NCBI GenBank assembly: GCA_010356995.1
Contig: ML996701.1
Coordinates: forward strand, 248,001-301,677
Reading direction: 5' to 3'
Source of the DNA: Trichodelitschia bisporula
Taxonomy: Eukaryota
Length of the DNA: 53,677 bases
Of the stretch, positions 8,669 through 53,677 are shown piece after piece. The position numbers were made by a program, and so were the translations under genes. The notes beneath the pieces were generated by a model. It had not been told where the DNA came from. It ran no database searches and saw only the letters and a list, made by a program, of their open reading frames with translations. Positions within the stretch are counted from its first letter, which is position 1, and each line of letters begins with the position of its first letter.

Positions 8669-11605
8669 ATATGTTCATTAGGGTTGATAGTCGATATCTT
8701 GACGACTGGCTGACTCGATTGCTGGAGTTGACGTCGAGATGTGAGCGTCGTGATATCTCAACCCCACATATTAGCCGCAAATGCAGTTGAAATCGGCGAT
8801 ATGATACGTAAATTTGGCATCAATGTGATTCGATGAAGACAGTAGACCAGTGTTCGGCAACCCTTGAGCGTACGCAGTAGAAGCATTCTTATCGGAGCAT
8901 CCAAGGCGTATCAGGCAACTCAGGGTCGCTTGCGGCTAACCAGTACTGGAAGCTCTCGCAGTGCGTATGTACGGTCCTGCACCTTAATTGATCAATCAGG
9001 GAGCGTGCTTGCAATTCAAGAAGCCGATGTTACAAGATGATAGGGCGTTCGCGAAGCATGTGAGACGAGAGAAGGGAGTTGACAGTCGAGAGTGCGTCCT
9101 GCTTGGAAGGGATGCCAGATATGATGCAGCCCATGTCTGCGTCTCCTCATTCACAACGCGAAGAGAACGGGAACATTGAAGCTCCAGACTTTCAGGCGAG
9201 ATGACATTGAGCACATTGATGAATATCTGAGCCAATTGGACCAGACGAGGAGTGTTTACTCCCTCCACATAGAGTGTTTCGACAAGCAATACGCTCGTTG
9301 TCCGGACGCGTAGAATCCGGAGGCGAACATTCAGTAGTCGATCGGTACCCTACCGTAATCGCATGGTCCGCGGACATCACCAGGCAAACGATCGGCACGC
9401 TCAATCAGCTCCCAGGAGCCGGCAGGCCACCCATCAAGACCCAAGGCCACACTGAGCCGAAGCTGACGTGAAGTTCACAACCAACAGCGCCCCAGACGCG
9501 CAAGGCTGCGCGGAGAAGCGCGGCATTTCCAGCCCCAGCCTCGGAGCATCATCCCGCCGGCTGGGCTCCGGGCCAATAAACACGTGTTTGAGGAGCAGCA
9601 GCAGATCAGCCTTCCTCGGTCTTGATTGCTTCAGCGATCCATCAGCTTGCACCGCGTGCGATTAATGGGGGTGGTTGGGGACCGGGACGAGGCCGTGTGT
9701 TGTTGTCTTGGGAGGCTGGGGGACTAGCCGAATAGGGCGAGTGACAGGGATCAGCGCGCTTGCCCCTGGTCGAGTGGCGAGACGCGTCCGACGTCGAGAC
9801 ATGGGGGCGCTGGTGCTGGGGACGTCTGGCACTGGCCCACGGTGCGCCGCGGTAACTCAAGATGCAGTCAACGAGGCGTGTCAGCGAGTTATGAGTTGCG
9901 GCAGTGCGTCTCAGGCCCGGCCGGGGCGTAAAGGGCGTAGGTTCCGTCGTAATGTGCGGGGCAGGACGCTTGCAACACGGCGAGCTACGCCGGTAGACGC
10001 CGGGAAAGAATAGGCCAAGAGGGATGATCCTGAGCTCTGGCAGCTAACATGTCAAAACAAACAGATGGGAATCGCACGATCCGCCCTTGTTACACGCTTA
10101 ACCACGGGTGGCAGCGCGTGCGGTCTCTCGGAAGCAAACAGAACAGATGCAACAGGGATCTGACCGAGCTGCAGCAGCGCCTCCCGGCAGACGCGGACAA
10201 GGGGGGGGAGCGCTGTAGTCAATTACCAGTAGGACGCCTCGGCCGTTGCTATGCAGCTAGCTTTGTTGACGAATGGGATCCCGGCTGGTGATAGCTTCTC
10301 ACAGACCACAGCCGGCCAGAGCTTTCCCCGGTCAAGAGCTTTGACGCCAATCAAAATAGGGGAGGCTGGTGGCGCTCATTCAGTGCAACAACAGGACAGC
10401 TGAGAAGCGACGGAACCATCACAGCCCCAAGCCAATTGACGCCGTCCACGAAAGGCGACACGGCGCGGCCGAAAAAGAAGATGGCTGGGAGAGCCCAGAG
10501 GAGCGGAGAATTGATGAAGACTTGGAGAGTGGGGTGCGGGAACAGCGGTAATTGACTGGATGGAAAAGAAGCTTCGACCAGAGCTTCAAAGCGGAACGAC
10601 GCGGAGGGAATTACGGTAGCCGGAGCAGGCGATATTATTATGAACGACCCCAGCCCCCCCATTCTTCCCCACTCTCCCAGGCTTCGGCTTCAACCCCCCC
10701 TTTAACAGTTCAGTCTCACTCTCACGTTTCATCGACATGTGCAGGATGGCGGGGGAAGAAGGGAAAAGGGCTTATGCCGCATCTCTATTGCTTCATGTTC
10801 TTGTTCCCCCTTCCCCGGCCCCCCAGATATCATGGCTCTGCTCATCTAAATTGAAAGGCCGGGAAACGCAAGGTCGTCAACAAACAACAAAGCAACAAGC
10901 GGCGGCGACGGGATGGAATTGGTGGACAAACAATGGAATCGGTTCGCGACTCCAATCCCATGTGCTTCCCAGCAAGGGAGTAGATATTAGATCCAACGTA
11001 GTGCGTAGACGAGCCCGAGAGAGTGAGCAAAAGACTCGGCAAAAACGCCAAAAAGCCCGCAAGAGAGCCAAATGAAGCCAAAGCTATCAGCAAGGCCCCA
11101 CGGCGCTATGCCTGAACGGTGATGCGTCAAAACAGTGATTGCGAGACGCGCCGTGCCATAAGAAACGCCAGCCCCGTTTCGCCCCAGCTGGGACCCACTT
11201 TCTCTTTCCCGCCTCCCACCATTTCCCCTCCCATCAACACTTGTCCTGCATATTCCACTACCCCCCAAAGTGCATAACCCCCTCTGTTCCAATCCAATCC
11301 AAACCTCAAATCATAACACAACTTTCCTGCACCTCTAAACCTTCCATCAATTGGCAGCTATTTGAACCGCGTTTCCCAGCAAAGCAACAACACCATCCCG
11401 CATTTACCCCTCACTCCAACAACCCCCCAAACCAAACAAACCTGGCGCCGACATCTCTGGTTTATCTCTCTTTCATTCTCTTCAAGAGATCTTCTTAGGC
11501 AATCCTCTTCTCAAGGAGCCAAGAAGTTCTTTCTTGTCTTCCTCTTGATCTGTTCCCGAACGGCTCGAGGGGTTTTCAAGAAGGAACGCCGCGACTCCAG
11601 ACAAC

Positions 11606-13517
11606 CTGGACTTTGACGCCCGCGTCCCGATCCCCTTCAGTGTCTTCCCGTCCTCGTATCGGAGTGACGCTGTCACAGCGGAAACCACCAAAGTCAAGGT
11701 AGAGGGTGAAGTCAACCTACCTGATCAGACTTCGCGCGTCGGACGGGAAGGTCACGAAGCCCGCTACACCTCCATCTCAACCGAAAGAGAAGGCCGTCGC
11801 GTCGAAGAGACTGTCCGGTACGAAGAGGAGCGTTCTCAGCAGCAGCAATATCCTCCACGTGAGGAGTATCCCCAGCATCTGCACAGCGAAGAGAAGCTCC
11901 GCATCCGCACACACCAGCCAGACGCTCTCTACGATCAAGCTCAATACCAACCGCGGGAGGAACACACTTCCCGCGTAGAGATCAGCAGAGGAGAACGGTA
12001 AGTCAGCACCAAGACAGCTCAACTCAGCTCCGAGACAACTCCCCCCTAAGCACCTCCCCCACCTCACGCGCTTGTTTCTCCACTTTCTCCACTTCACGCG
12101 CTACTGTTTACCCACCCGTACCCCCCCTGTCCTACCCCCAGACACCTCCCAACCCCCCCAATTCCCACTTGTGGACCTTGTTTTGTTTTGTTTTGCTTCA
12201 TCTTTTCCTTTTCCAATAGCCGCCCCTTTTGGTTCGGTCCTTGGCATTGACCATCCATCACCTTGGACCGCGTCGTGGCTTGTGTGTTGTCCTGGCGACC
12301 AGACACAAATTTTTCCTTGCCCTCTTTTTATCCCTATTCCCCCGTCTGTTCTTCCACTCTTGACTTGAGCCTCACTAACCATCCTCGTCAATTCCTACAG
12401 CTACCGAGAACCCTTCCGTCGGTACGCCGAAGCTCAGATCGACGTTCCGGACAAGACATACGGGTCATCCTTTGATAAGACCCTCGACATCAACGAGCGC
12501 CGCCTTCGTGCAGACACCCGCCCCATCGTTCCTGAGAGCCGCTTCGGTCCCTCAGCCTCTTACCAAGCCCAGGACTCCTACCCCCAGTACGGTGGTCCCA
12601 CCTCTGACTACCCTGTCCAAGCCTCATCCGAGGTCCGTGTCAACAAGTCTTTCGTCTCCGGCTCCACCATCGACCCACCCCGTCGTTCCCAACCGGAGTA
12701 CAGCGTCGAACAGACCGCTTCTTACTCCACCGTTGACCCACCCCGCTACCCACGCGAGGAAGTTCGAGTAGAAAGGACTGCTCGGACCACTGTTGACGCA
12801 CCGAAGAAGTTCAAGCGGGACATGGGATATTACGACGACGACGGTCACTACCACTCGTTCCGTCGTGGTGTCCAGCGTGTTGCAGAGCACATTCGTCACC
12901 CCATTCACGGTCCTCATCACCACCACGACAAGCACGTCGAGGAGGTAGTCGTCAAGAACACCGACGTCCAGATTCCTGCTTCTCGCCCCTCAGGCGGCTA
13001 TACTCCCTCCAGCGGCTATACTCCTTCCAGCTCTCAAGGCCCCTCTTCCTCAATGAACAAGAAGATGCTTCCCAACACCATCACCATCCCGTGCCACCAC
13101 ATCCGCATTGGCGATCTCCTGATTCTGCAGGGTCGCCCTTGCCAGGTCATCCGCATCACGACGTCGTCGCAGACTGGCCAGCACCGCTACCTCGGTGTTG
13201 ATCTGTTCACCAAGCAGCTGCACGAGGAGTCGAGCTTCATCTCGTCCCCTTCGCCGTCGGTGGTTGTCCAGAACATGCTGGGTCCTATCTTCAAACAGTA
13301 CCGTGTTCTGGACATCCGTGATGATGGTCGCGTCGTCGCCATGACCGACACTGGCGATGTCAAGCAGGGCCTTCAGATCCTCGACCAGAGCGACTTGCTC
13401 GCTCGCCTCACGGAGTCCTTCGACAATGGCCGTGGCAGCGTTCGCGTCCTCGTCATCTCCGATGAGGGCCGCGAGCTTGCTGTTGACTTCAAGGTTGTGC
13501 ACGGCTGCCGGTTGTAA
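11606..13517 (+). CDS. hex-1: Putative long HEX-1 isoform (about 502 aa): exons 11606-11997 and 12401-13517, proposed CUG start
   Basis: Manual translation gives a stop-free frame LDFDARVPIPFSVFPSSYRSDA...SRGE|RYREPF...KKFKRD-MGYY. Intron 11998-12400 (GTAAGT..CTAAC..CAG) joins the exons in phase. Upstream in-frame TGA at 11546. No ATG is available. Confidence 0.65.
12822..13517 (+). CDS. hex-1: Woronin body major protein HEX-1 (eIF5A-like fold), AUG-initiated short form
   Basis: 'MGYYDDDGHYHSFRRG', His-rich linker, 'TITIPCHHIRIGDLLILQGRPCQVIRI..GQHRYLGVDLFTKQLHEESSF..GPIFKQYRVLD', and PTS1-type end 'HGCRL'. Confidence 0.97.
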   Translation: MGYYDDDGHYHSFRRGVQRVAEHIRHPIHGPHHHHDKHVEEVVVKNTDVQIPASRPSGGYTPSSGYTPSSSQGPSSSMNKKMLPNTITIPCHHIRIGDLLILQGRPCQVIRITTSSQTGQHRYLGVDLFTKQLHEESSFISSPSPSVVVQNMLGPIFKQYRVLDIRDDGRVVAMTDTGDVKQGLQILDQSDLLARLTESFDNGRGSVRVLVISDEGRELAVDFKVVHGCRL

Positions 13518-14179
13518 ATCTGCTTTCAGGTATGGCGCTTCTGTCGATGATATTTCTTGATGCTAATCAATGTTCAGCATCATGATTTCACGGTCAATGT
13601 GTTTCAAGCTGATGACTACGTCGCTGCTTGGTTCGCATCCGCTCAGAATGTGTTCATAAAACCTTTCCGCTTTTGTTTTGTTTAGTGCTGCATTTAGACG
13701 ACGTCTGGAGGAGCCGCATCTCAGTGCAGTAAATGTTGGTTGGGATCTTCTCTGTAATGACAAGAGGGCGAGTCTACCACTTGGTCTCGGTGCTTCTTGG
13801 CCTTCCTGGATCTCAGTTTGGAGTTACAGTTAGTCAAGTATGTACTTGGGTCATGGGGTCGGTGTTGGTATTGTGTGTGCATAGTTAATGCGATGTTGTT
13901 TCGTTAACCTCTTGGCTCTCGCTTGATCTCATGTGATGTGACGTTTGATGTCCCTGCCCTCCCTGGCCCTGCCCTCCCTGGTCGAAGCTTAAATCTCACA
14001 ACGCGGTGCGTTATCCCCGCATCACTCCGGGTACCATTCCCGCCTTGATGGCGCTCCAAGCCTAGGCTTTTTAAGCCCATAAAGCTCGAGCTTTCGACCT
14101 CTGTTCAGAGTCCCACATGTCTTCTCACGATATACTTCAGTCCTGAAAGTGACATTATAGTAGGAACCTATTATTGACC

Positions 14180-15324
14180 ATGGCCGTCGACGATTCCTCC
14201 AATATCCCGCCCTTCCCAGCTCACGTCCCCACGGCCCCCCTCCTCCGCATTTCTCTATCCAAACTGCTGGCAGCCGACCCGACTGAAGTCGATCGCCTCT
14301 GGACCGCCTCGTGCAACCTAGGCTTCTTCTACTTAGACCTATCCACCCCTCCCTCAGTCGCCATCAACGGTGGAGCCCTCCTCTCCGACGCTTCGGCGCT
14401 CTTCTCCCTCGCCTCATCCCTCTTTGCCCTCCCGACCTTGGAAAAGGCAAAGTACGACATGGCCGCTGAGGGGAGCTACTTCGGATACAAGGGCTACGGG
14501 GCGGGCATAATCGACGCAGCAGGCACGCCAGACCGGAACGAGTTCTACAATGTAAACTCCCCCGGCCCCCCAGCTACCCTCGCTCCTTCCTCACTTACCC
14601 ACACCAGGTCTCAAAAGACGACATCCTCGGCCTATCCTTGCCCCTCCGCGCCCCAGACCTCCTCACCCCGCATCGGCCACTCTTCACATCGTTCATCCAC
14701 GCTGCGCACTCCCTCACGCTCCTCGTGCTCGATATCCTGAATATGAAGCTCCAACTTCCACCCGGCACGCTGACGACCCTACACGCCCTCGACAAGCCCT
14801 CGGGCGACCAGGTGCGCATGATCAAGGCGCCGCCGCAGCCGCCGCAGGATCAGCGGACGGTGCTTGGGGCGCATACCGATTTTGGCAGCGTGACTGTGTT
14901 GTTTAACCGCGTGGGTGGGCTTCAGGTTCAGCTGCCTGAGGGAGTGAAAGCGGAAGGTGAGGAGACGGAGGATGGGTGGGCGTATGTCCGTCCGTTGCCT
15001 GAACATGCGGTTATTAACCTCGGCGATGCGCTGGTCAAGTTTTCGGCGGGAGTGCTGAGGAGTAATATTCACAGGGTGGTGAGTCCGCCGGGGGAGCAGG
15101 CGGGGGTGACGAGGTATAGTGTTGTGTATTTTTCGAGGCCGGGGGATGAGGTTGTGCTTAGGCCGCTGAAGGAGAGTCCGGTTGTTAGGGGAAGGGTTGG
15201 CGATGGAGAGGAGGAGGAGGAGGTTAGTTCTAAGGAGTGGGTGCTCAGGAGAGCGCTGGGGAGGAGGGGGGTTGGGAGGTGGGAGGATAGTAAGGGGACG
15301 GAGGGGGAAAGAGTGAAGGCGTAG
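14180..15324 (+). CDS. 2-oxoglutarate/Fe(II)-dependent oxygenase (DIOX_N + 2OG-FeII_Oxy); intron 14552-14607
   Basis: 'ASCNLGFFYL', 'DRNEFYN|VSKDDI', HxD 'GAHTDFGSVTVLFN', distal His 'SNIHRV', RxS 'RYSVVYF'. Confidence 0.9.
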
Positions 15325-48755: not shown

Positions 48756-51700
48756 TCATGCTCCAAACGAGAAGCCTCCAGGCATCTGCCCGCTCCCATA
48801 ACCAGGGGGATACGGCGTCCCAGCCTGCGGAACGCTATAGCCCTGGCGGGCGTACCCTGGCCGCACTGGCTGTTGTTGCTGCTGATGGTGCTGCTGCATG
48901 TACGCATCTTGCGCCATCTGAGACTGGGCATAGTGATGCGCCATCTGCTGCGCGGCGGTCGGGGCCATCGGCGGCGGCGCCATACTGGCGTTCATGGGCG
49001 GCGGAGTCGGGACATGGGGCGCGTACTTGGGGGCATCGCGATCGTCGCGCCGGTACTCCCGCTCACGCTCGCGGTGCTCCATCTCCCTTTCACGCTGCTC
49101 GCGCTCACGCTCACGCTCCTCCCTGCGCTCACGAGTCGGGACCGGGGGCGGCCCCATAGAGGAGCTGCTGGCGGCGCTGACGCCAGCCGAAGACGTCGGG
49201 GCACGCGGCTTGGAGCGGGCATAGTCGCTTGTGTAACCAGACTTGGCCTGCCTAGCAGCAGGGCGGCGGTCATCGTCGTACTCGCCGCGCTTGCGTGCGG
49301 CGACGCGGGGCGCCTCGCGAACAGTCGACGCCCTCTTGCGCTCCCTCGTCCGATCAATGGAGCGGCTGGCCTCGGATTCGGTCTCAGTGTCGGCAACGGA
49401 AGACGGGGTGCGGACGGCACGGCGTGGGTACGAGGACTCGCGCTCACGCTCGCGACGGTCCTTTTCGCGTTCAAGCCGCTCGCGGTCGGCCCGTTCGGCT
49501 CGCTCCCGCTCACGTTCCCGCTCAGCACGCCCGGCACGCTCGATCTTCTCGCGCTCACGGGCACGCTCCCGCTCGGCACGCTCATCCTCGACGGCCCTTT
49601 CGGCGGCCCGGCGACGGCGCTCACGTTCGCGGTTGCGATCGGGGCTGCGGCTGCGGGAACGCTCGGGGGCACGACGGGTCTGAGTGTAAGTCCGTTGGCG
49701 GGGCGGCTGGACGATGACCTCGTCTTCGGAGGAGGAAGTGTCCGACTCATCGTCATCGTACTCGTCGCGGCGAACAGGGCGCCGGGTGTCCCGCTTACGG
49801 TCGGCTGGGCTGCGGTCGCGTGGGTCGCGGCGATAGTCTCTGGCGCGCTCCCTCTCTTTCTCTCGCTCCCGCTCCTGCCGTTCCCGTTCCCGATCCCGTT
49901 CACGCTGCTCCTGCTCAATCTCTTCCCTCACGCGCTCCCTCTCGCGTTGCTCCCGCTCAATCTCTTCCCTCACGCGCTCCTCCCGCTCAATCTCTTGCCT
50001 CACGCGCTCCCTTTCCCGCTCTCTCTCTTTCTCGCGCTCCTTTTCGCGCTCCTTCTCCTTCTCCCTTTCACGTTCCTTCTCCTTCTCAATCTCCTTCTCC
50101 CGCTCCTCCTCACGCTCCCGCTCAAGTCTTTCCCTGATCACATTCCCCATGCGCGAAGCAGCCGTTCCACCAGCGATAGACTGACCACCGTACAAGCTCT
50201 GAGTCGTGACACTACCGCGCCGGCCACCAACGACCAACTCGGCCGTACCATCGCCATTAGGCTTCAGCTCAACTCTCCTGCCCTGGAACTCCATCTCAAA
50301 GCCGTTCGTCGTATCAATGCGCATCTTGAGCTCCTCTACAGCCGGCTCGCCACCCATGCTCATGGTTCCAGGCCCAGTATGCACCAGAGCGCCAGCCCCA
50401 GGATTGCTACCCGAGCTGTCTGACGGCACGCCCATCTGCCGACGCAGAGCAGACTGCGTCAGCGGGACGGGCGCTTGCGGCGGCGGAACTTGGACCATGT
50501 GGGTGCTATTCTGGCGGCTATGCATTGGCGGCGGAGCCGACGGTGCCGGGGGCGGGACGTTGCCGCGCTTCAGATCCTCCTCCATACGGCGCTGATACGC
50601 CATGGCCTCGAGCACAGGGTCGACACCAGGAGCCGAGGTGGCGGACTGAGACGGTGACACCGACGTCGATGGCGAGGCGGACGCCTCGGACGCTGAATCT
50701 TCGTCCTGGAGGCCGATGTGGCTCATGCTGTTGCCAACGCTACGCAGCGCCTCGTTGTAAGAGTGGTTAAAGGCCTTGTTGAAGGACTGGCTCCCCCGAC
50801 GGGGGTTGAGTGGGCGGGCGGTCTGGGGGTGTAGCTGGGGGTGTGCTTGTGGGAAATGAGGCTGATGCTGGGGTAGATGCTGAGGAAGGTGTTGAGGAAG
50901 ATGTTGAGGATGCAAAGGTGCATGGTGAACTGCAGCATGAGGTGCCTGGGGCACGTGTGGGACTGGTGGGACGTGCGACAGGTGGGGTGGGAGGACAACG
51001 GGAGGCTGCGGGTCGAGGTGGATGGAGTTGGAGAGCGGAGCAAAGGGATTGTCGTCCATATCCGGCCCGTGCATGGGGCTGCGCATCGGCGGCAGCTCAT
51101 GGTACTCCTCGTGCTCCTCCTCCTCTTCCTCACTGGTCTCGTCCTCCTCGTCATCGTCGTCGTACGTGAACCTATGACGCATGCTCTCCATCGGCCTGTC
51201 CGTGCCCATGTGCGACATCCGCCTGCGTGACCGCGACCGGGAAGCCGGCCCGACGGTGATGTTGGGATCATCGAAGGCGCGGCTCGAGCGGGGTCCCGTC
51301 GACGTCGGCTGGGTGTAAGAGCTGGCCTTGGTGCGAGCACCGCTGGAAGCCTGCGATGGGCGTCGTGTCGAAGACGAGCCGGACGTCGACGGTGCCGGAT
51401 TACGGGCTGACGGACGGTAGGGTTGAAGCTGGCGAGTTGGGTCGGTCGACGTAGGAGTTGGCGGGCCGTAGGCACTCTTAACGTCTGCCGTCTGGCGCAT
51501 ACTCAGTTTGGGACGAGAGGAAAGGGTGGGAGTGTCGACAGCGGTGGTGGTGCTGCTACGGTGAGGCATGCCGCGCTGCTGACGGAAGGCGTTCGCCTCA
51601 CGCTTAACCGGGTTGGCCTCGCGCTTGATCTTTTCGCCCATCCCTTTCTTGCTGGTGTTGGTGAGGTTGCGGATGGCTTCAAGGTCGACCTGCGGAGGCC

Positions 51701-53501
51701 CGCGGGCAGGCGGTAGGTCTTGTTCGTCGTCGGACTCATCGCTCTCGGGCTCCGGTGAGACGACACGCTTGCGTCGACGACGTGGCTGCGGCTCCTCCTC
51801 TTCGCTTGTCTCACTCTCTTCGAATTCAGGCTCGAACTCGCGATCCTCGCTGCTTGGCTCCTCCTCCTCCTCTTCGTCGTCCCAGTAGATGCCGTTGGTC
51901 GTCACCCGCCTCGCGCTGAGGCCCTGTGAGTGGTTGCGGTCGTACTGGACAAGAGCGTTGGGTCCGTGGACCGACTGCGGCCGCATGTGTCGTCGCGCAG
52001 ACATGGTGGAGTCGGCGGTAGCACGCGTGGACAGCGGCGGGCGTTCAGGATGATCGTAAGGGCCGGGAACGGGATAATCGCGCTGGGGCGGGGCGGGCGG
52101 GTGCTGGTAATAAGGATGGCCAGGTGGGAAGGAGACCATCTGGCGAGCGGAGGTAGGCGGGGGGCCCATGGGCGGGCCCGGCATGGGTGGTGGCATGCGT
52201 CCGTACATGCTGCTTGGGCGTTCGCGGGTGCGCGACCTTGTGGAGGTAGACGTGGAACGCGGGCGCGGACGGACCTGTGACTGGTCGGCAGCGGATGGGT
52301 TCGCCAACGTAGCCGTCAAGGCGGGTCGGGAAGCTGCGTCGGTGGCGGTTGAATCTGGCACACGCAGGCGAGGAGGGGGTGACTTGCGCTGCTTGCGGGT
52401 GGTGGAGGAGGCAGGTGTGGTGGATGGTTTGGATGAGGGTGCGCGCGGTCGGGAAGCAGAGGAGGCGGTTGGCCGGGTAGCAGGTGTCGACGACTGGCGC
52501 CCACGCGTGCACTGGTCGCAGTCGGGATCTTCGCAGACCTTGGCCTTTTTCTTCTTCGGCTTCTTTTGGCCGTCGGCGGGCGTGGTGGAGGGGCGGGCAC
52601 GGCTGGTGCTGGTGGACGCGGCCGTTTTGTTGCTCACACTCGTCTTTCCGCTGGCCACGCTGGTGGCAGCCGAGCTGCCGGCCGACTTCCCTTTGGCTTT
52701 GCGTGGCGCTTCGCTGGCACCGCTGTGGCTGGTCGACAGGCTTGCCGCAGTCGAGGTGCTGGCAGCGACACTGCCGACAGTGCTGGCGACGGTGCTCGCG
52801 ACCGAGCTCACGTTGCTGCTGTTGCTGCCAGAGGTGGTGCTCGGAGCGGTGGTAGTGGTGGTGGTGGTGGTGGTGGTAGTCTGGGCACGACGACGCTTAC
52901 TCTCTTCACGTTGTTGATTGAGAGGAGTCGAGGTAGAAGAAGTGGAATTAGTGACTGTAGGAGTGTCGGAGGAAGAGTTTGCGTTGTGTGAGTAAGAGCG
53001 GGAGTGCGAATGCGGGTGTGCGTTGTTGTTGGTGGGGGGAGAAATGCTGATGCTGGGTCCGGCACTGGAACTGGGAGGGTTGGTGGTCCCTCCAGCCGCC
53101 GCCACGTTGTCGCTCGCTGCAGCCGACGGCGCTTTTCCTCCGGCACCCGATGCCTTGGCCGACACTGGGCCAGCGTAAGAAGAAGAGGATCCCGGGCTGC
53201 TGCTCTGCGTAGAGTCCGAGGATTGACGATTTTGATGCGCACGACTTGAATATCCCGAATCGCTTGGAGAATCCGGTGCGTCTTCAACCGTGACTTTTCG
53301 CGAAAAAGCCGACTGTTGTGAGTGCGATGATCGGAGACTGTGGTTGCTACCCGCAGGATTGACGGCTCCCGCGGAACCTCGCACACCGGAAACGCGACGC
53401 ACACCGGCGTTTGCCTTCTTGCGCGTATCCGCAAGCTCTTCGTCCCCTTCCGAATTGTAGTCGGCGCAGGAAGCGACTATCGACTCGGTGTCTCTGGCCA
53501 T
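48756..53501 (-). CDS. Very large low-complexity protein (about 1580 aa): S/T-rich, CxxPxCxxC, P-rich, acidic and RE-dipeptide tracts; the true start may lie in an upstream exon
   Basis: Uninterrupted 4.8 kb ORF. First ATG at 53501 lies just after a splice-acceptor-like '..TATAAGCAG'. One short globular-looking block 'LKMRIDTTNGFEMEFQGRRVELKPNGDGTAELVVG'. Confidence 0.75.
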   Translation of the reverse strand: MARDTESIVASCADYNSEGDEELADTRKKANAGVRRVSGVRGSAGAVNPAGSNHSLRSSHSQQSAFSRKVTVEDAPDSPSDSGYSSRAHQNRQSSDSTQSSSPGSSSSYAGPVSAKASGAGGKAPSAAASDNVAAAGGTTNPPSSSAGPSISISPPTNNNAHPHSHSRSYSHNANSSSDTPTVTNSTSSTSTPLNQQREESKRRRAQTTTTTTTTTTTAPSTTSGSNSSNVSSVASTVASTVGSVAASTSTAASLSTSHSGASEAPRKAKGKSAGSSAATSVASGKTSVSNKTAASTSTSRARPSTTPADGQKKPKKKKAKVCEDPDCDQCTRGRQSSTPATRPTASSASRPRAPSSKPSTTPASSTTRKQRKSPPPRLRVPDSTATDAASRPALTATLANPSAADQSQVRPRPRSTSTSTRSRTRERPSSMYGRMPPPMPGPPMGPPPTSARQMVSFPPGHPYYQHPPAPPQRDYPVPGPYDHPERPPLSTRATADSTMSARRHMRPQSVHGPNALVQYDRNHSQGLSARRVTTNGIYWDDEEEEEEPSSEDREFEPEFEESETSEEEEPQPRRRRKRVVSPEPESDESDDEQDLPPARGPPQVDLEAIRNLTNTSKKGMGEKIKREANPVKREANAFRQQRGMPHRSSTTTAVDTPTLSSRPKLSMRQTADVKSAYGPPTPTSTDPTRQLQPYRPSARNPAPSTSGSSSTRRPSQASSGARTKASSYTQPTSTGPRSSRAFDDPNITVGPASRSRSRRRMSHMGTDRPMESMRHRFTYDDDDEEDETSEEEEEEHEEYHELPPMRSPMHGPDMDDNPFAPLSNSIHLDPQPPVVLPPHLSHVPPVPHVPQAPHAAVHHAPLHPQHLPQHLPQHLPQHQPHFPQAHPQLHPQTARPLNPRRGSQSFNKAFNHSYNEALRSVGNSMSHIGLQDEDSASEASASPSTSVSPSQSATSAPGVDPVLEAMAYQRRMEEDLKRGNVPPPAPSAPPPMHSRQNSTHMVQVPPPQAPVPLTQSALRRQMGVPSDSSGSNPGAGALVHTGPGTMSMGGEPAVEELKMRIDTTNGFEMEFQGRRVELKPNGDGTAELVVGGRRGSVTTQSLYGGQSIAGGTAASRMGNVIRERLEREREEEREKEIEKEKEREREKEKEREKEREKERERERERVRQEIEREERVREEIEREQRERERVREEIEQEQRERDRERERQEREREKERERARDYRRDPRDRSPADRKRDTRRPVRRDEYDDDESDTSSSEDEVIVQPPRQRTYTQTRRAPERSRSRSPDRNRERERRRRAAERAVEDERAERERAREREKIERAGRAERERERERAERADRERLEREKDRRERERESSYPRRAVRTPSSVADTETESEASRSIDRTRERKRASTVREAPRVAARKRGEYDDDRRPAARQAKSGYTSDYARSKPRAPTSSAGVSAASSSSMGPPPVPTRERREEREREREQREREMEHREREREYRRDDRDAPKYAPHVPTPPPMNASMAPPPMAPTAAQQMAHHYAQSQMAQDAYMQQHHQQQQQPVRPGYARQGYSVPQAGTPYPPGYGSGQMPGGFSFGA
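49900..50015. repeat. Coding tandem repeat (about 3 copies of CTCAATCTCTT(C/G)CCTCACGCGCTCC) encoding ERVREEIE units
   Basis: Near-identical units at about 49914, 49956 and 49986 within the RE-rich tract. Confidence 0.75.
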
Positions 53502-53677
53502 GTAGAAGGTTTGCTTTTTCCGGACCTGCTTATAAGAGAAGAGGTACTGTGTTTTTTTTGTCAACCAGCAAGGCTAGCTGGTGGGCCGAGGGCCAAGGGC
53601 CAGAAGCCCGAATGCGTGGGTGGAGCGCAATTTGGGCGGACTGGATAATGGATTAGAGAGAAAGAAGTGTTTCCCGG

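Follow-up and report, generated by a model that had tools for sequence, protein, structure and literature searches.

The hex-1 gene of the fungus Trichodelitschia bisporula lies within a 53,677-nucleotide (nt) stretch of its genome (assembly GCA_010356995.1, contig ML996701.1, positions 248,001 to 301,677 of the forward strand; hereafter "the window", in whose own numbering all coordinates are given) and seems to encode two forms of HEX-1, the defining protein of the Woronin body and a textbook case of self-assembly. The longer, of about 502 amino acids (aa), would be initiated at a CUG codon (11606-11608, + strand), whereas the classical 231-aa form would be made by those ribosomes that leak past this codon and scan on to the canonical AUG. 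Judging from the sequence and its relatives, we consider this joint mechanism probable; that there is a coding arm starting at the CUG is the more certain part of it, and that both forms come from one messenger RNA (mRNA) by leaky scanning is the less certain one.

The layout of the locus, as put forward in a preliminary description made from the letters of the window alone, was borne out when the sequence was re-read. An in-frame TGA (11546-11548) closes the frame upstream of the CUG, after which no further stop interrupts it across 11549-11997 (449 nt, phase 2); within this exon A, the extension is encoded by 11606-11997, and the end of the exon (...SRGER followed by GT) resembles the ...SRER followed by GT seen in related genomic loci. 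Then come a canonical intron 1 of 403 nt (11998-12400, phase 2; donor GTAAGT at 11998, AG at 12399-12400, with a CTAAC about 20 nt 5' of that AG) and exon B (12401-12821), whose predicted product is disordered and rich in Arg, Glu, Ser, Pro and Tyr, and carries T(V/I)D(P/A)P repeats towards its end. Exon B continues in frame into the canonical HEX-1 AUG (12822-12824, MGYYDDD), which no ATG of any frame precedes in the mature mRNA and which opens the 231-aa coding sequence of the HEX-1 core (12822-13517) with its peroxisomal targeting signal type 1 (PTS1) CRL at 13506-13514 and the stop codon TAA at 13515-13517, all of these features being on the + strand. Read from the CTG at 11606, the spliced open reading frame (ORF) encodes 502 aa, and residue 272 is its first Met, i.e., that of the AUG form. 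The context described for this CTG (ACAAC-CTG-G, with A at 11603, or -3, and G at 11609, or +4) was likewise found as described. From 11122 to 12822, the + strand holds no ATG in any frame, and this 1700-nt gap is the longest on the + strand of the window, the runner-up being 784 nt.

The start codon itself does not vary among relatives. A metagenome scan with peptide patterns from which the Leu codon in question had been excluded gave 182 relatives, of which the best 80 loci were kept; one of these is without the start, and the other 79 represent 54 distinct sequences, 20 of which are intronless contigs resembling complementary DNA (cDNA-like contigs; together with the window, these make up the set of 21 coding sequences used below). 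The start Leu codon is CTG in 54/54 distinct loci and in the window (55/55), and the A at -3 and the G at +4 are just as constant (54/54 loci each, 55/55 with the window), which means that the invariant CTG in an ANN-CTG-G context sought by the preliminary description is there, while the free synonymous variation at this Leu codon, by which it had set out to be judged, is not. By way of control, CTG accounts for 13.9% of the 440 other Leu codons in the 21 coding sequences, and ten other conserved Leu columns show 3-6 synonymous codons each. The conserved context extends to GACAAC-CTG-G (11600-11609, + strand; CTG 55/55), with an information content of 1.9 bits at G-6, 1.8 at C-4, 2.0 at A-3, 1.8 at A-2 and 2.0 at G+4, and at most 1.1 bits upstream of -6. 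An in-frame stop lies 12-141 nt upstream of the CTG in 54/54 loci (only 12-15 nt in 14 of them), with no in-frame ATG between, so that both marks of a non-AUG proteoform, a conserved near-cognate codon in a strong context and an upstream stop with no AUG in between, are present. After that stop, eight of the 55 sequences (54 loci and the window) offer no other in-frame near-cognate codon, and none of the upstream near-cognate codons in the 55 sequences is kept in position.

The coding signature, as had been anticipated, begins at this very codon: third-codon-position periodicity is seen only downstream of the CTG, with stops as close as 12-15 nt on its other side. The ratio of nonsynonymous to synonymous substitution rates (dN/dS; Nei-Gojobori, 210 pairs) is well below the value of one named in the preliminary description, being 0.043 for codons 2-21 and 0.14 for the HEX part. 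The length of the arm differs between species, yet the frame is kept in all 21 sequences, and, as the arm is open in 20/20 cDNA-like contigs despite these length differences, every indel within it must have been a multiple of three.

What connects the CUG to the classical AUG is the absence of any ATG between them. In 20/20 cDNA-like contigs, a single ORF runs from the CTG to the stop codon (415-581 aa), behind leaders of 129-426 nt (free of any ATG in 18/20), and the first Met is always that of MGYYD; the arm of 209-363 codons is without an ATG in any frame in all 20 and in the window likewise (21/21). Over the 21 sequences, 0 out-of-frame ATGs were observed vs 89.8 expected from codon-order shuffles in which the codon set is kept, with 0-13% of such shuffles giving zero ATG in a single sequence. 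As to the genomic-type loci, where donors alone were located, by pattern, exon A ends as in the window (...SRER followed by GT) in 18, and in the 13 with a recognisable donor and ATGs before MGYY, all of these ATGs are 3' of the exon A donor; one further locus of this type has ATGs but no donor fitting the pattern used. In all 21 sequences (21/21 for each position), the HEX-1 AUG itself is preceded by a purine at -3 and followed by G at +4. Selection against AUG in every frame of an arm that is itself coding seems sensible only if ribosomes have to scan through it to reach the AUG, and the proposal that one locus makes two isoforms (a CUG-initiated one of ~502 aa and an AUG-initiated one of 231 aa) would fit this pattern well.

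RNA records, which are assembled contigs rather than reads, were compared with the window over 10700-14000; they come from runs X1 and X2 (one sample, in which about three quarters of the stretch is present), X6 (bearing the label of another organism) and X3 (a soil metatranscriptome, most pieces of which are <95% alike). The junction 11997/12401, which skips 403 nt with GT..AG ends and had been proposed as a check, was seen in a contig of X1 (shorter side 29 nt) and in a 540-nt contig of X2 (shorter side 150 nt), and in X6, a loose end at 11997 continues with the 14 bases that open exon B. The summed depth of the contigs, at ~1,400 upstream of ~11456, reaches ~100,000 (X1) and ~150,000 (X2) at 11467, and amounts to 0-650 within intron 1, where an unspliced contig (11968-12428) has a depth of ~650 vs tens of thousands in the exons. 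One X2 contig (record 10) covers 11522-11618 unbroken, right across the CUG, and high cover extends without a gap from 11467 or earlier to beyond 11606, with no other joint upstream of intron 1 in X1 and X2; the CUG and at least 139 nt upstream of it are therefore part of the mature RNA, and no upstream exon is spliced in, including the ATG-bearing one that the preliminary description had envisaged as possibly joining within 11549-11605. Nor do X1 and X2 have any joint inside 12822-13517, and an alternative acceptor just after MGYYDD was not seen in them, the intron here being upstream of the AUG. Joints found only in X3 (11532/11602, 11759/12402, 11994/12402, 12854/13072) are without splice ends or have other letters, and were read as diverged relatives and not as splicing of hex-1. 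Over 10700-11456, low-depth contigs (~1,400 vs tens of thousands) end at 11422 and 11456. An mRNA start near 11460 is only hinted at, since contigs cannot fix a transcription start.

Protein models of relatives, wherever their annotators happened to begin them, converge on the same residue. A search of longer proteins with exon A (149 aa) gave 246 matches, and the best 120 of these 246 are all Pezizomycotina HexA or Woronin-body models, with LDF(D/E)A(R/K)VP(I/V)PFS(V/I)FPS(S/T)Y... present in 119/120 and the remaining one beginning inside the motif. Upstream of the L, these listed models have nothing in common: in 100 of them the Met taken as the start varies and is 4-1360 residues distant, and the other 19 are without a start Met. 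The residue at -1 in the 119 models is N in 108, T in eight, K in two and V in one, so that the codon at -3 to -1 begins with A in 118/119, and such upstream strings as FERHSRKDA, AFEKGR and FKKERRDS are the same conserved nucleotides "translated" in different frames, as is also visible in the DNA. The statement of the preliminary description that long Aspergillus models carry a similar motif proved right for those of Aspergillus fumigatus, A. ibericus and A. tanneri, which have N-LDFDARVPIPFSVFPSSYRSD. The classes represented are Dothideomycetes, Arthoniomycetes, Lecanoromycetes, Geoglossomycetes, Xylonomycetes, Leotiomycetes and Eurotiomycetes, to which a second search, seeded with a Colletotrichum model (98 matches, 90 examined), added Sordariomycetes (at least eight classes), with the motif in 83/90 of the models examined (Glomerellales including Verticillium, Xylariales, Sordariales, Hypocreales, Coniochaetales). 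One model from Colletotrichum karsti (P0210; a protein model only) begins with M exactly at the start codon (MDFEARIPVPF...), which could be either a natural CTG-to-ATG change or the choice of an annotator.

Gene annotations, as far as such comparisons allow one to judge, appear to have missed or garbled the long HEX-1. A single 90%-identity cluster from Aspergillus section Flavi is annotated at 176, 225, 226, 334, 508, 519 and 524 aa. A search of representative sequences returned 67 clusters, which were mostly fragments of 80-270 aa with exon A only and by themselves told little about taxonomy. In Parastagonospora nodorum (P0159, P0204; 28 contigs/strains), the arm is annotated apart from its gene, as a 315-aa hypothetical protein without the HEX core, which is an example of split annotation.

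As to the protein, the part from 12822 matches Pfam IF5A-like_N PF21485 (E 2.5e-07) and eIF-5a PF01287 (E 2.2e-07), both above cut-offs, and the solved Woronin-body proteins PDB 8qlw, 8qnu, 8qlu and 1khi at E 6.9e-86 to 5.9e-74, i.e., it has the two-domain eIF5A-like core of HEX-1/HexA. The MGYYDD described as conserved in HEX-1 (PMC7762394) is present as MGYYDDD at 12822, and the C-terminal CRL agrees with the PTS1 consensus S/A/C-K/R/H-L/M (PMC7559983); the window differs in this from its 20 cDNA-like relatives, which end in SRL (19) or SRM (one). The arm begins with the near-invariant N-terminal motif (L/M)DFDARVPIPFSVFPSSYRSDA (11606-11671, + strand), found in 119/120 listed protein models, includes VPIPFSVFPSSYR, which is spanned by a predicted tryptic peptide, and is devoid of Cys, Trp and Met, consisting of 12.5% Arg, 11% Glu, 10% Ser, 9% Pro and 6% Tyr. 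CUG starts use initiator methionyl transfer RNA (Met-tRNA), so the real N-terminus of the long form would be MDFDAR.... No match to the arm was found among solved structures. An AlphaFold2 run on the uninterrupted long form of a close relative (L011, 469 aa; 72-row alignment) gave a predicted local distance difference test (pLDDT) score that stays <50 over most of residues 1-233 (means of 37-50 per block of ten residues, one short helix excepted), with the N-terminal motif at ~45-50 and without contact to the confidently modelled HEX core. The arm is therefore predicted to be disordered, much as had been supposed, and to bear an invariant linear motif at its N-terminus.

The leader in front of the CUG is conserved in its own way. 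If the tentative start near 11460 holds, it is an ATG-free 5' leader (11460-11605, + strand) that contains a conserved two-tier stem-loop (11531-11582, + strand) some 25-75 nt 5' of the CUG, with the in-frame TGA inside it; its outer stem pairs 11531-11535 with 11578-11582 and its inner stem 11541-11547 with 11566-11572. Across 12 pairs and 36 sequences, 96.7% of cells are paired vs 35-65% when the partner is slid, the loop length varies from 6 to ~22 nt among relatives, and the leader of the window folds likewise (z -2.78). Eight cells in three pairs are altered on both sides, mainly from U-A to C-G at one pair, and these double-sided changes may go back to a small number of evolutionary events; a comparison of 11300-12900 with Rfam gave no matching family. 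CAAGAAG occurs twice (11520-11526 and 11577-11583), each copy being able to pair with TTTCTTG (11530-11536), so the leader could form two mutually exclusive hairpins; for the first CAAGAAG/TTTCTTG pair, the loop between varies among species while the arms are kept. Small hairpins on the 3' side of the CUG (one with GGAC/GUCC between about +3 and +22, another from about +35) were considered as start aids and rejected, as their columns are fixed by the protein sequence and hence lend no independent support to structure-assisted initiation, which is not claimed.

Taken as a mechanism, the hex-1/hexA mRNA would begin near 11460 and contain no AUG before 12822, so that the CUG at 11606, whose A at -3 and G at +4 give it a strong context, would be the first start codon met by scanning ribosomes. 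Some of them would initiate there with initiator Met-tRNA and make the product of ~502 aa, consisting of MDFDARVPIPF..., an arm of ~270 disordered residues, the HEX-1 core and the C-terminal PTS1. The others would pass through ~810 nt of spliced sequence devoid of ATG before initiating at the AUG, giving the 231-aa self-assembling HEX-1. The long form would presumably enter peroxisomes via the PTS1 that both forms share, and its invariant N-terminal motif may be a docking site for a partner; the effects on lattice size, tethering or organelle sorting that the preliminary description suggested for the arm are likewise conjectural. A bolder extension of this, which we regard as rather doubtful and offer as speculation, is that the long form is a second universal structural component of the Woronin body: its invariant 21-residue N-terminus would dock a biogenesis or tethering factor or cap the HEX lattice, the disordered arm being unable to fit inside the crystal, and the leader stem-loop, together with the duplicated CAAGAAG boxes competing for one TTTCTTG, would be an RNA device setting the CUG:AUG ratio and hence the size or number of Woronin bodies.

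Other explanations were weighed against this one. The CUG-started ORF could be translated with the short HEX-1 coming from elsewhere, either from a second transcript starting in the intron or exon B, or by cleavage of the long precursor, and contigs, which cannot show transcript starts, leave room for the former, just as the cleavage of HEX-1 reported for Neurospora crassa (PMC7559983, where the mature length was left undetermined) does for the latter. Neither, however, accounts for an arm kept free of ATG in three frames (21/21, against the 89.8 ATGs expected), which is sensible only with scanning, for the conservation of the AUG, its context (21/21) and MGYYD, or for the ATGs of related genomic loci occurring only after the exon A donor; we hold this alternative to be unlikely, if the least unlikely of the three considered here.

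That the whole region is an untranslated 5' leader conserved as RNA or DNA, with the open frame being incidental, would suit the conserved hairpin just upstream of the CUG and the unusually strong synonymous-site conservation of codons 2-21 (where some third positions, e.g., in TTT of Phe3 and CCG of Pro15, are nearly fixed), but is very improbable given 209-363 codons open in 20/20 cDNA-like contigs with every indel a multiple of three, a motif dN/dS of 0.043 with several codons showing free third-position change, a 3-nt periodicity, and conserved nucleotides upstream of the CTG that are read in different frames in the models of different species. Even less credence is given to a start further upstream, be it an AUG on an exon spliced just before 11606 or another near-cognate codon. 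There are indeed ATGs at 11072, 11108 and 11122, a low-depth contig over 10700-11456, an in-frame AGG at -24 in the window, and some other in-frame near-cognate codon upstream in 18/55 relatives; X1 and X2, however, have contiguous cover and no joint into 11549-11605, the only GT-donor splice checked by hand (from the ATG at 11108 to the CAG at 11600) would be out of frame, 18/20 cDNA-like leaders are without any ATG, the stop is a mere 12-15 nt before the CTG in 14 loci, and the CTG is the sole candidate in 8/55.

Several points nevertheless weigh against initiation at the CUG with leaky scanning to the AUG, and the support for the CUG start is comparative. The metagenome loci are mutually related, so that 54/54 is not a count of 54 independent events, and the "RNA" label of X1 and X2 is a guess of the tool, though the splicing and the depth contrast fit RNA; being contigs, they cannot show the transcription start, the RNA level or a second, shorter transcript. 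The rest of the arm, with a dN/dS of 0.42 that is near saturation and rests on an uncertain alignment, evolves fast and is predicted to be disordered. The median proportion of synonymous differences (pS) is 0.43 in the first 21 codons (11609-11671 in the window) vs 0.68 elsewhere, and the unpreferred codons TTT of Phe3 and CCG of Pro15 are almost fixed among the 55 sequences; a constraint at the RNA level near the start is therefore likely too, and part of the conservation in these codons may act on RNA. All solved HEX structures are short forms (176-218 aa), and antibodies or RNA sequencing have revealed two splice isoforms only, of ~21 and 23.5 kDa, with no form of ~55 kDa in the accessible part of that report (PMC7762394).

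Elsewhere in the window, X1, X2 and X6 all show the splicing of a 48-nt intron in the 3' untranslated region (13530-13577, + strand, GT..AG; joint 13524/13573, cut +5), which lies 12 nt past the stop codon. The downstream neighbour of hex-1 (14153-15324) is a 2-oxoglutarate (2OG)-Fe(II) oxygenase (Pfam DIOX_N, 2OG-FeII_Oxy), and a 1373-aa model from Elsinoe australis, named "2OG-Fe(II) oxygenase-like", matches the HEX arm, which points to a shared gene order and to an annotation there in which the genes were fused. On the minus strand, a 1293-nt stretch without ATG (52206-53499) was considered as a second case and taken for an effect of composition, as it is inside a 1605-aa low-complexity ORF (48756-53573; 58-69% GC) rich in Ser, Thr, Pro and Arg/Glu.

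Long isoforms that begin at a CUG and arise by leaky scanning are known from animals (c-Myc, FGF2, PTEN-L), and hex-1 would resemble these in having a strong-context CUG upstream of, and in frame with, an AUG, with two proteoforms from one mRNA; it differs from them in the much greater length of its arm, and also in that at least eight fungal classes have preserved the depletion of AUG in all frames. A fungal peroxisomal protein was reportedly found in 2020 to gain an isoform via a non-AUG start, the extension supplying a targeting signal, whereas both forms of HEX-1 share the C-terminal PTS1 and the extension would add a disordered arm and an N-terminal motif. The cpc-1 gene of Pezizomycotina (PMC5487733), like hex-1, has a long conserved frame before the main AUG with conserved non-AUG starts extending the isoforms, yet has several near-cognates and AUG upstream ORFs, unlike the single invariant CUG after an in-frame stop and the leader and arm free of AUG in every frame of hex-1; in the accessible text of that paper, hex-1, Woronin bodies and peroxisomes occur 0 times. 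The known splice isoforms of HEX-1/HexA (PMC7762394) are likewise two forms of the same gene that differ at the N-terminus. They arise, however, by splicing of a conserved intron near the N-terminus, and both begin with MGYYDD and are ~20 residues apart (188 vs 209 aa), whereas the long form proposed here would have 271 residues upstream of MGYYDD and arise by start-codon choice.

Full-text literature searches gave no paper linking Woronin/Hex1/HexA with non-AUG, CUG, near-cognate or leaky scanning (subscription hex1 papers on Trichoderma, A. oryzae and A. fumigatus, as well as supplements, being outside their scope), and peptide strings of the arm occur in no paper text so searched. The literature, where accessible, treats HEX-1 as a 19-25 kDa protein. 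In the parts of the relevant papers that are available, 51% of 460 GenBank Hex1 proteins are given as 405-534 aa and left unexplained (PMC7559983), "hypervariable N-terminal extensions" of Hex1 are ascribed to faulty annotation (PMC7762394), and a long A. flavus model is used without comment (PMC6371581). On the present reading, the arm would be genuine, and the artefacts would be confined to the residues that the models place upstream of the CUG.

If this is true, the "length variation" of annotated Hex1 proteins is explained, and one simple rule, i.e., to start at the CTG of N-LDF(D/E)AR, could correct hundreds of gene models. The hex-1 locus would also lend itself well, as a clean natural case, to work on how fungi use near-cognate starts and leaky scanning. 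A conserved isoform of ~50-60 kDa, whose N-terminal motif is the same in classes as far apart as Dothideomycetes and Sordariomycetes, would bring a so far unstudied player into the sealing of septal pores.

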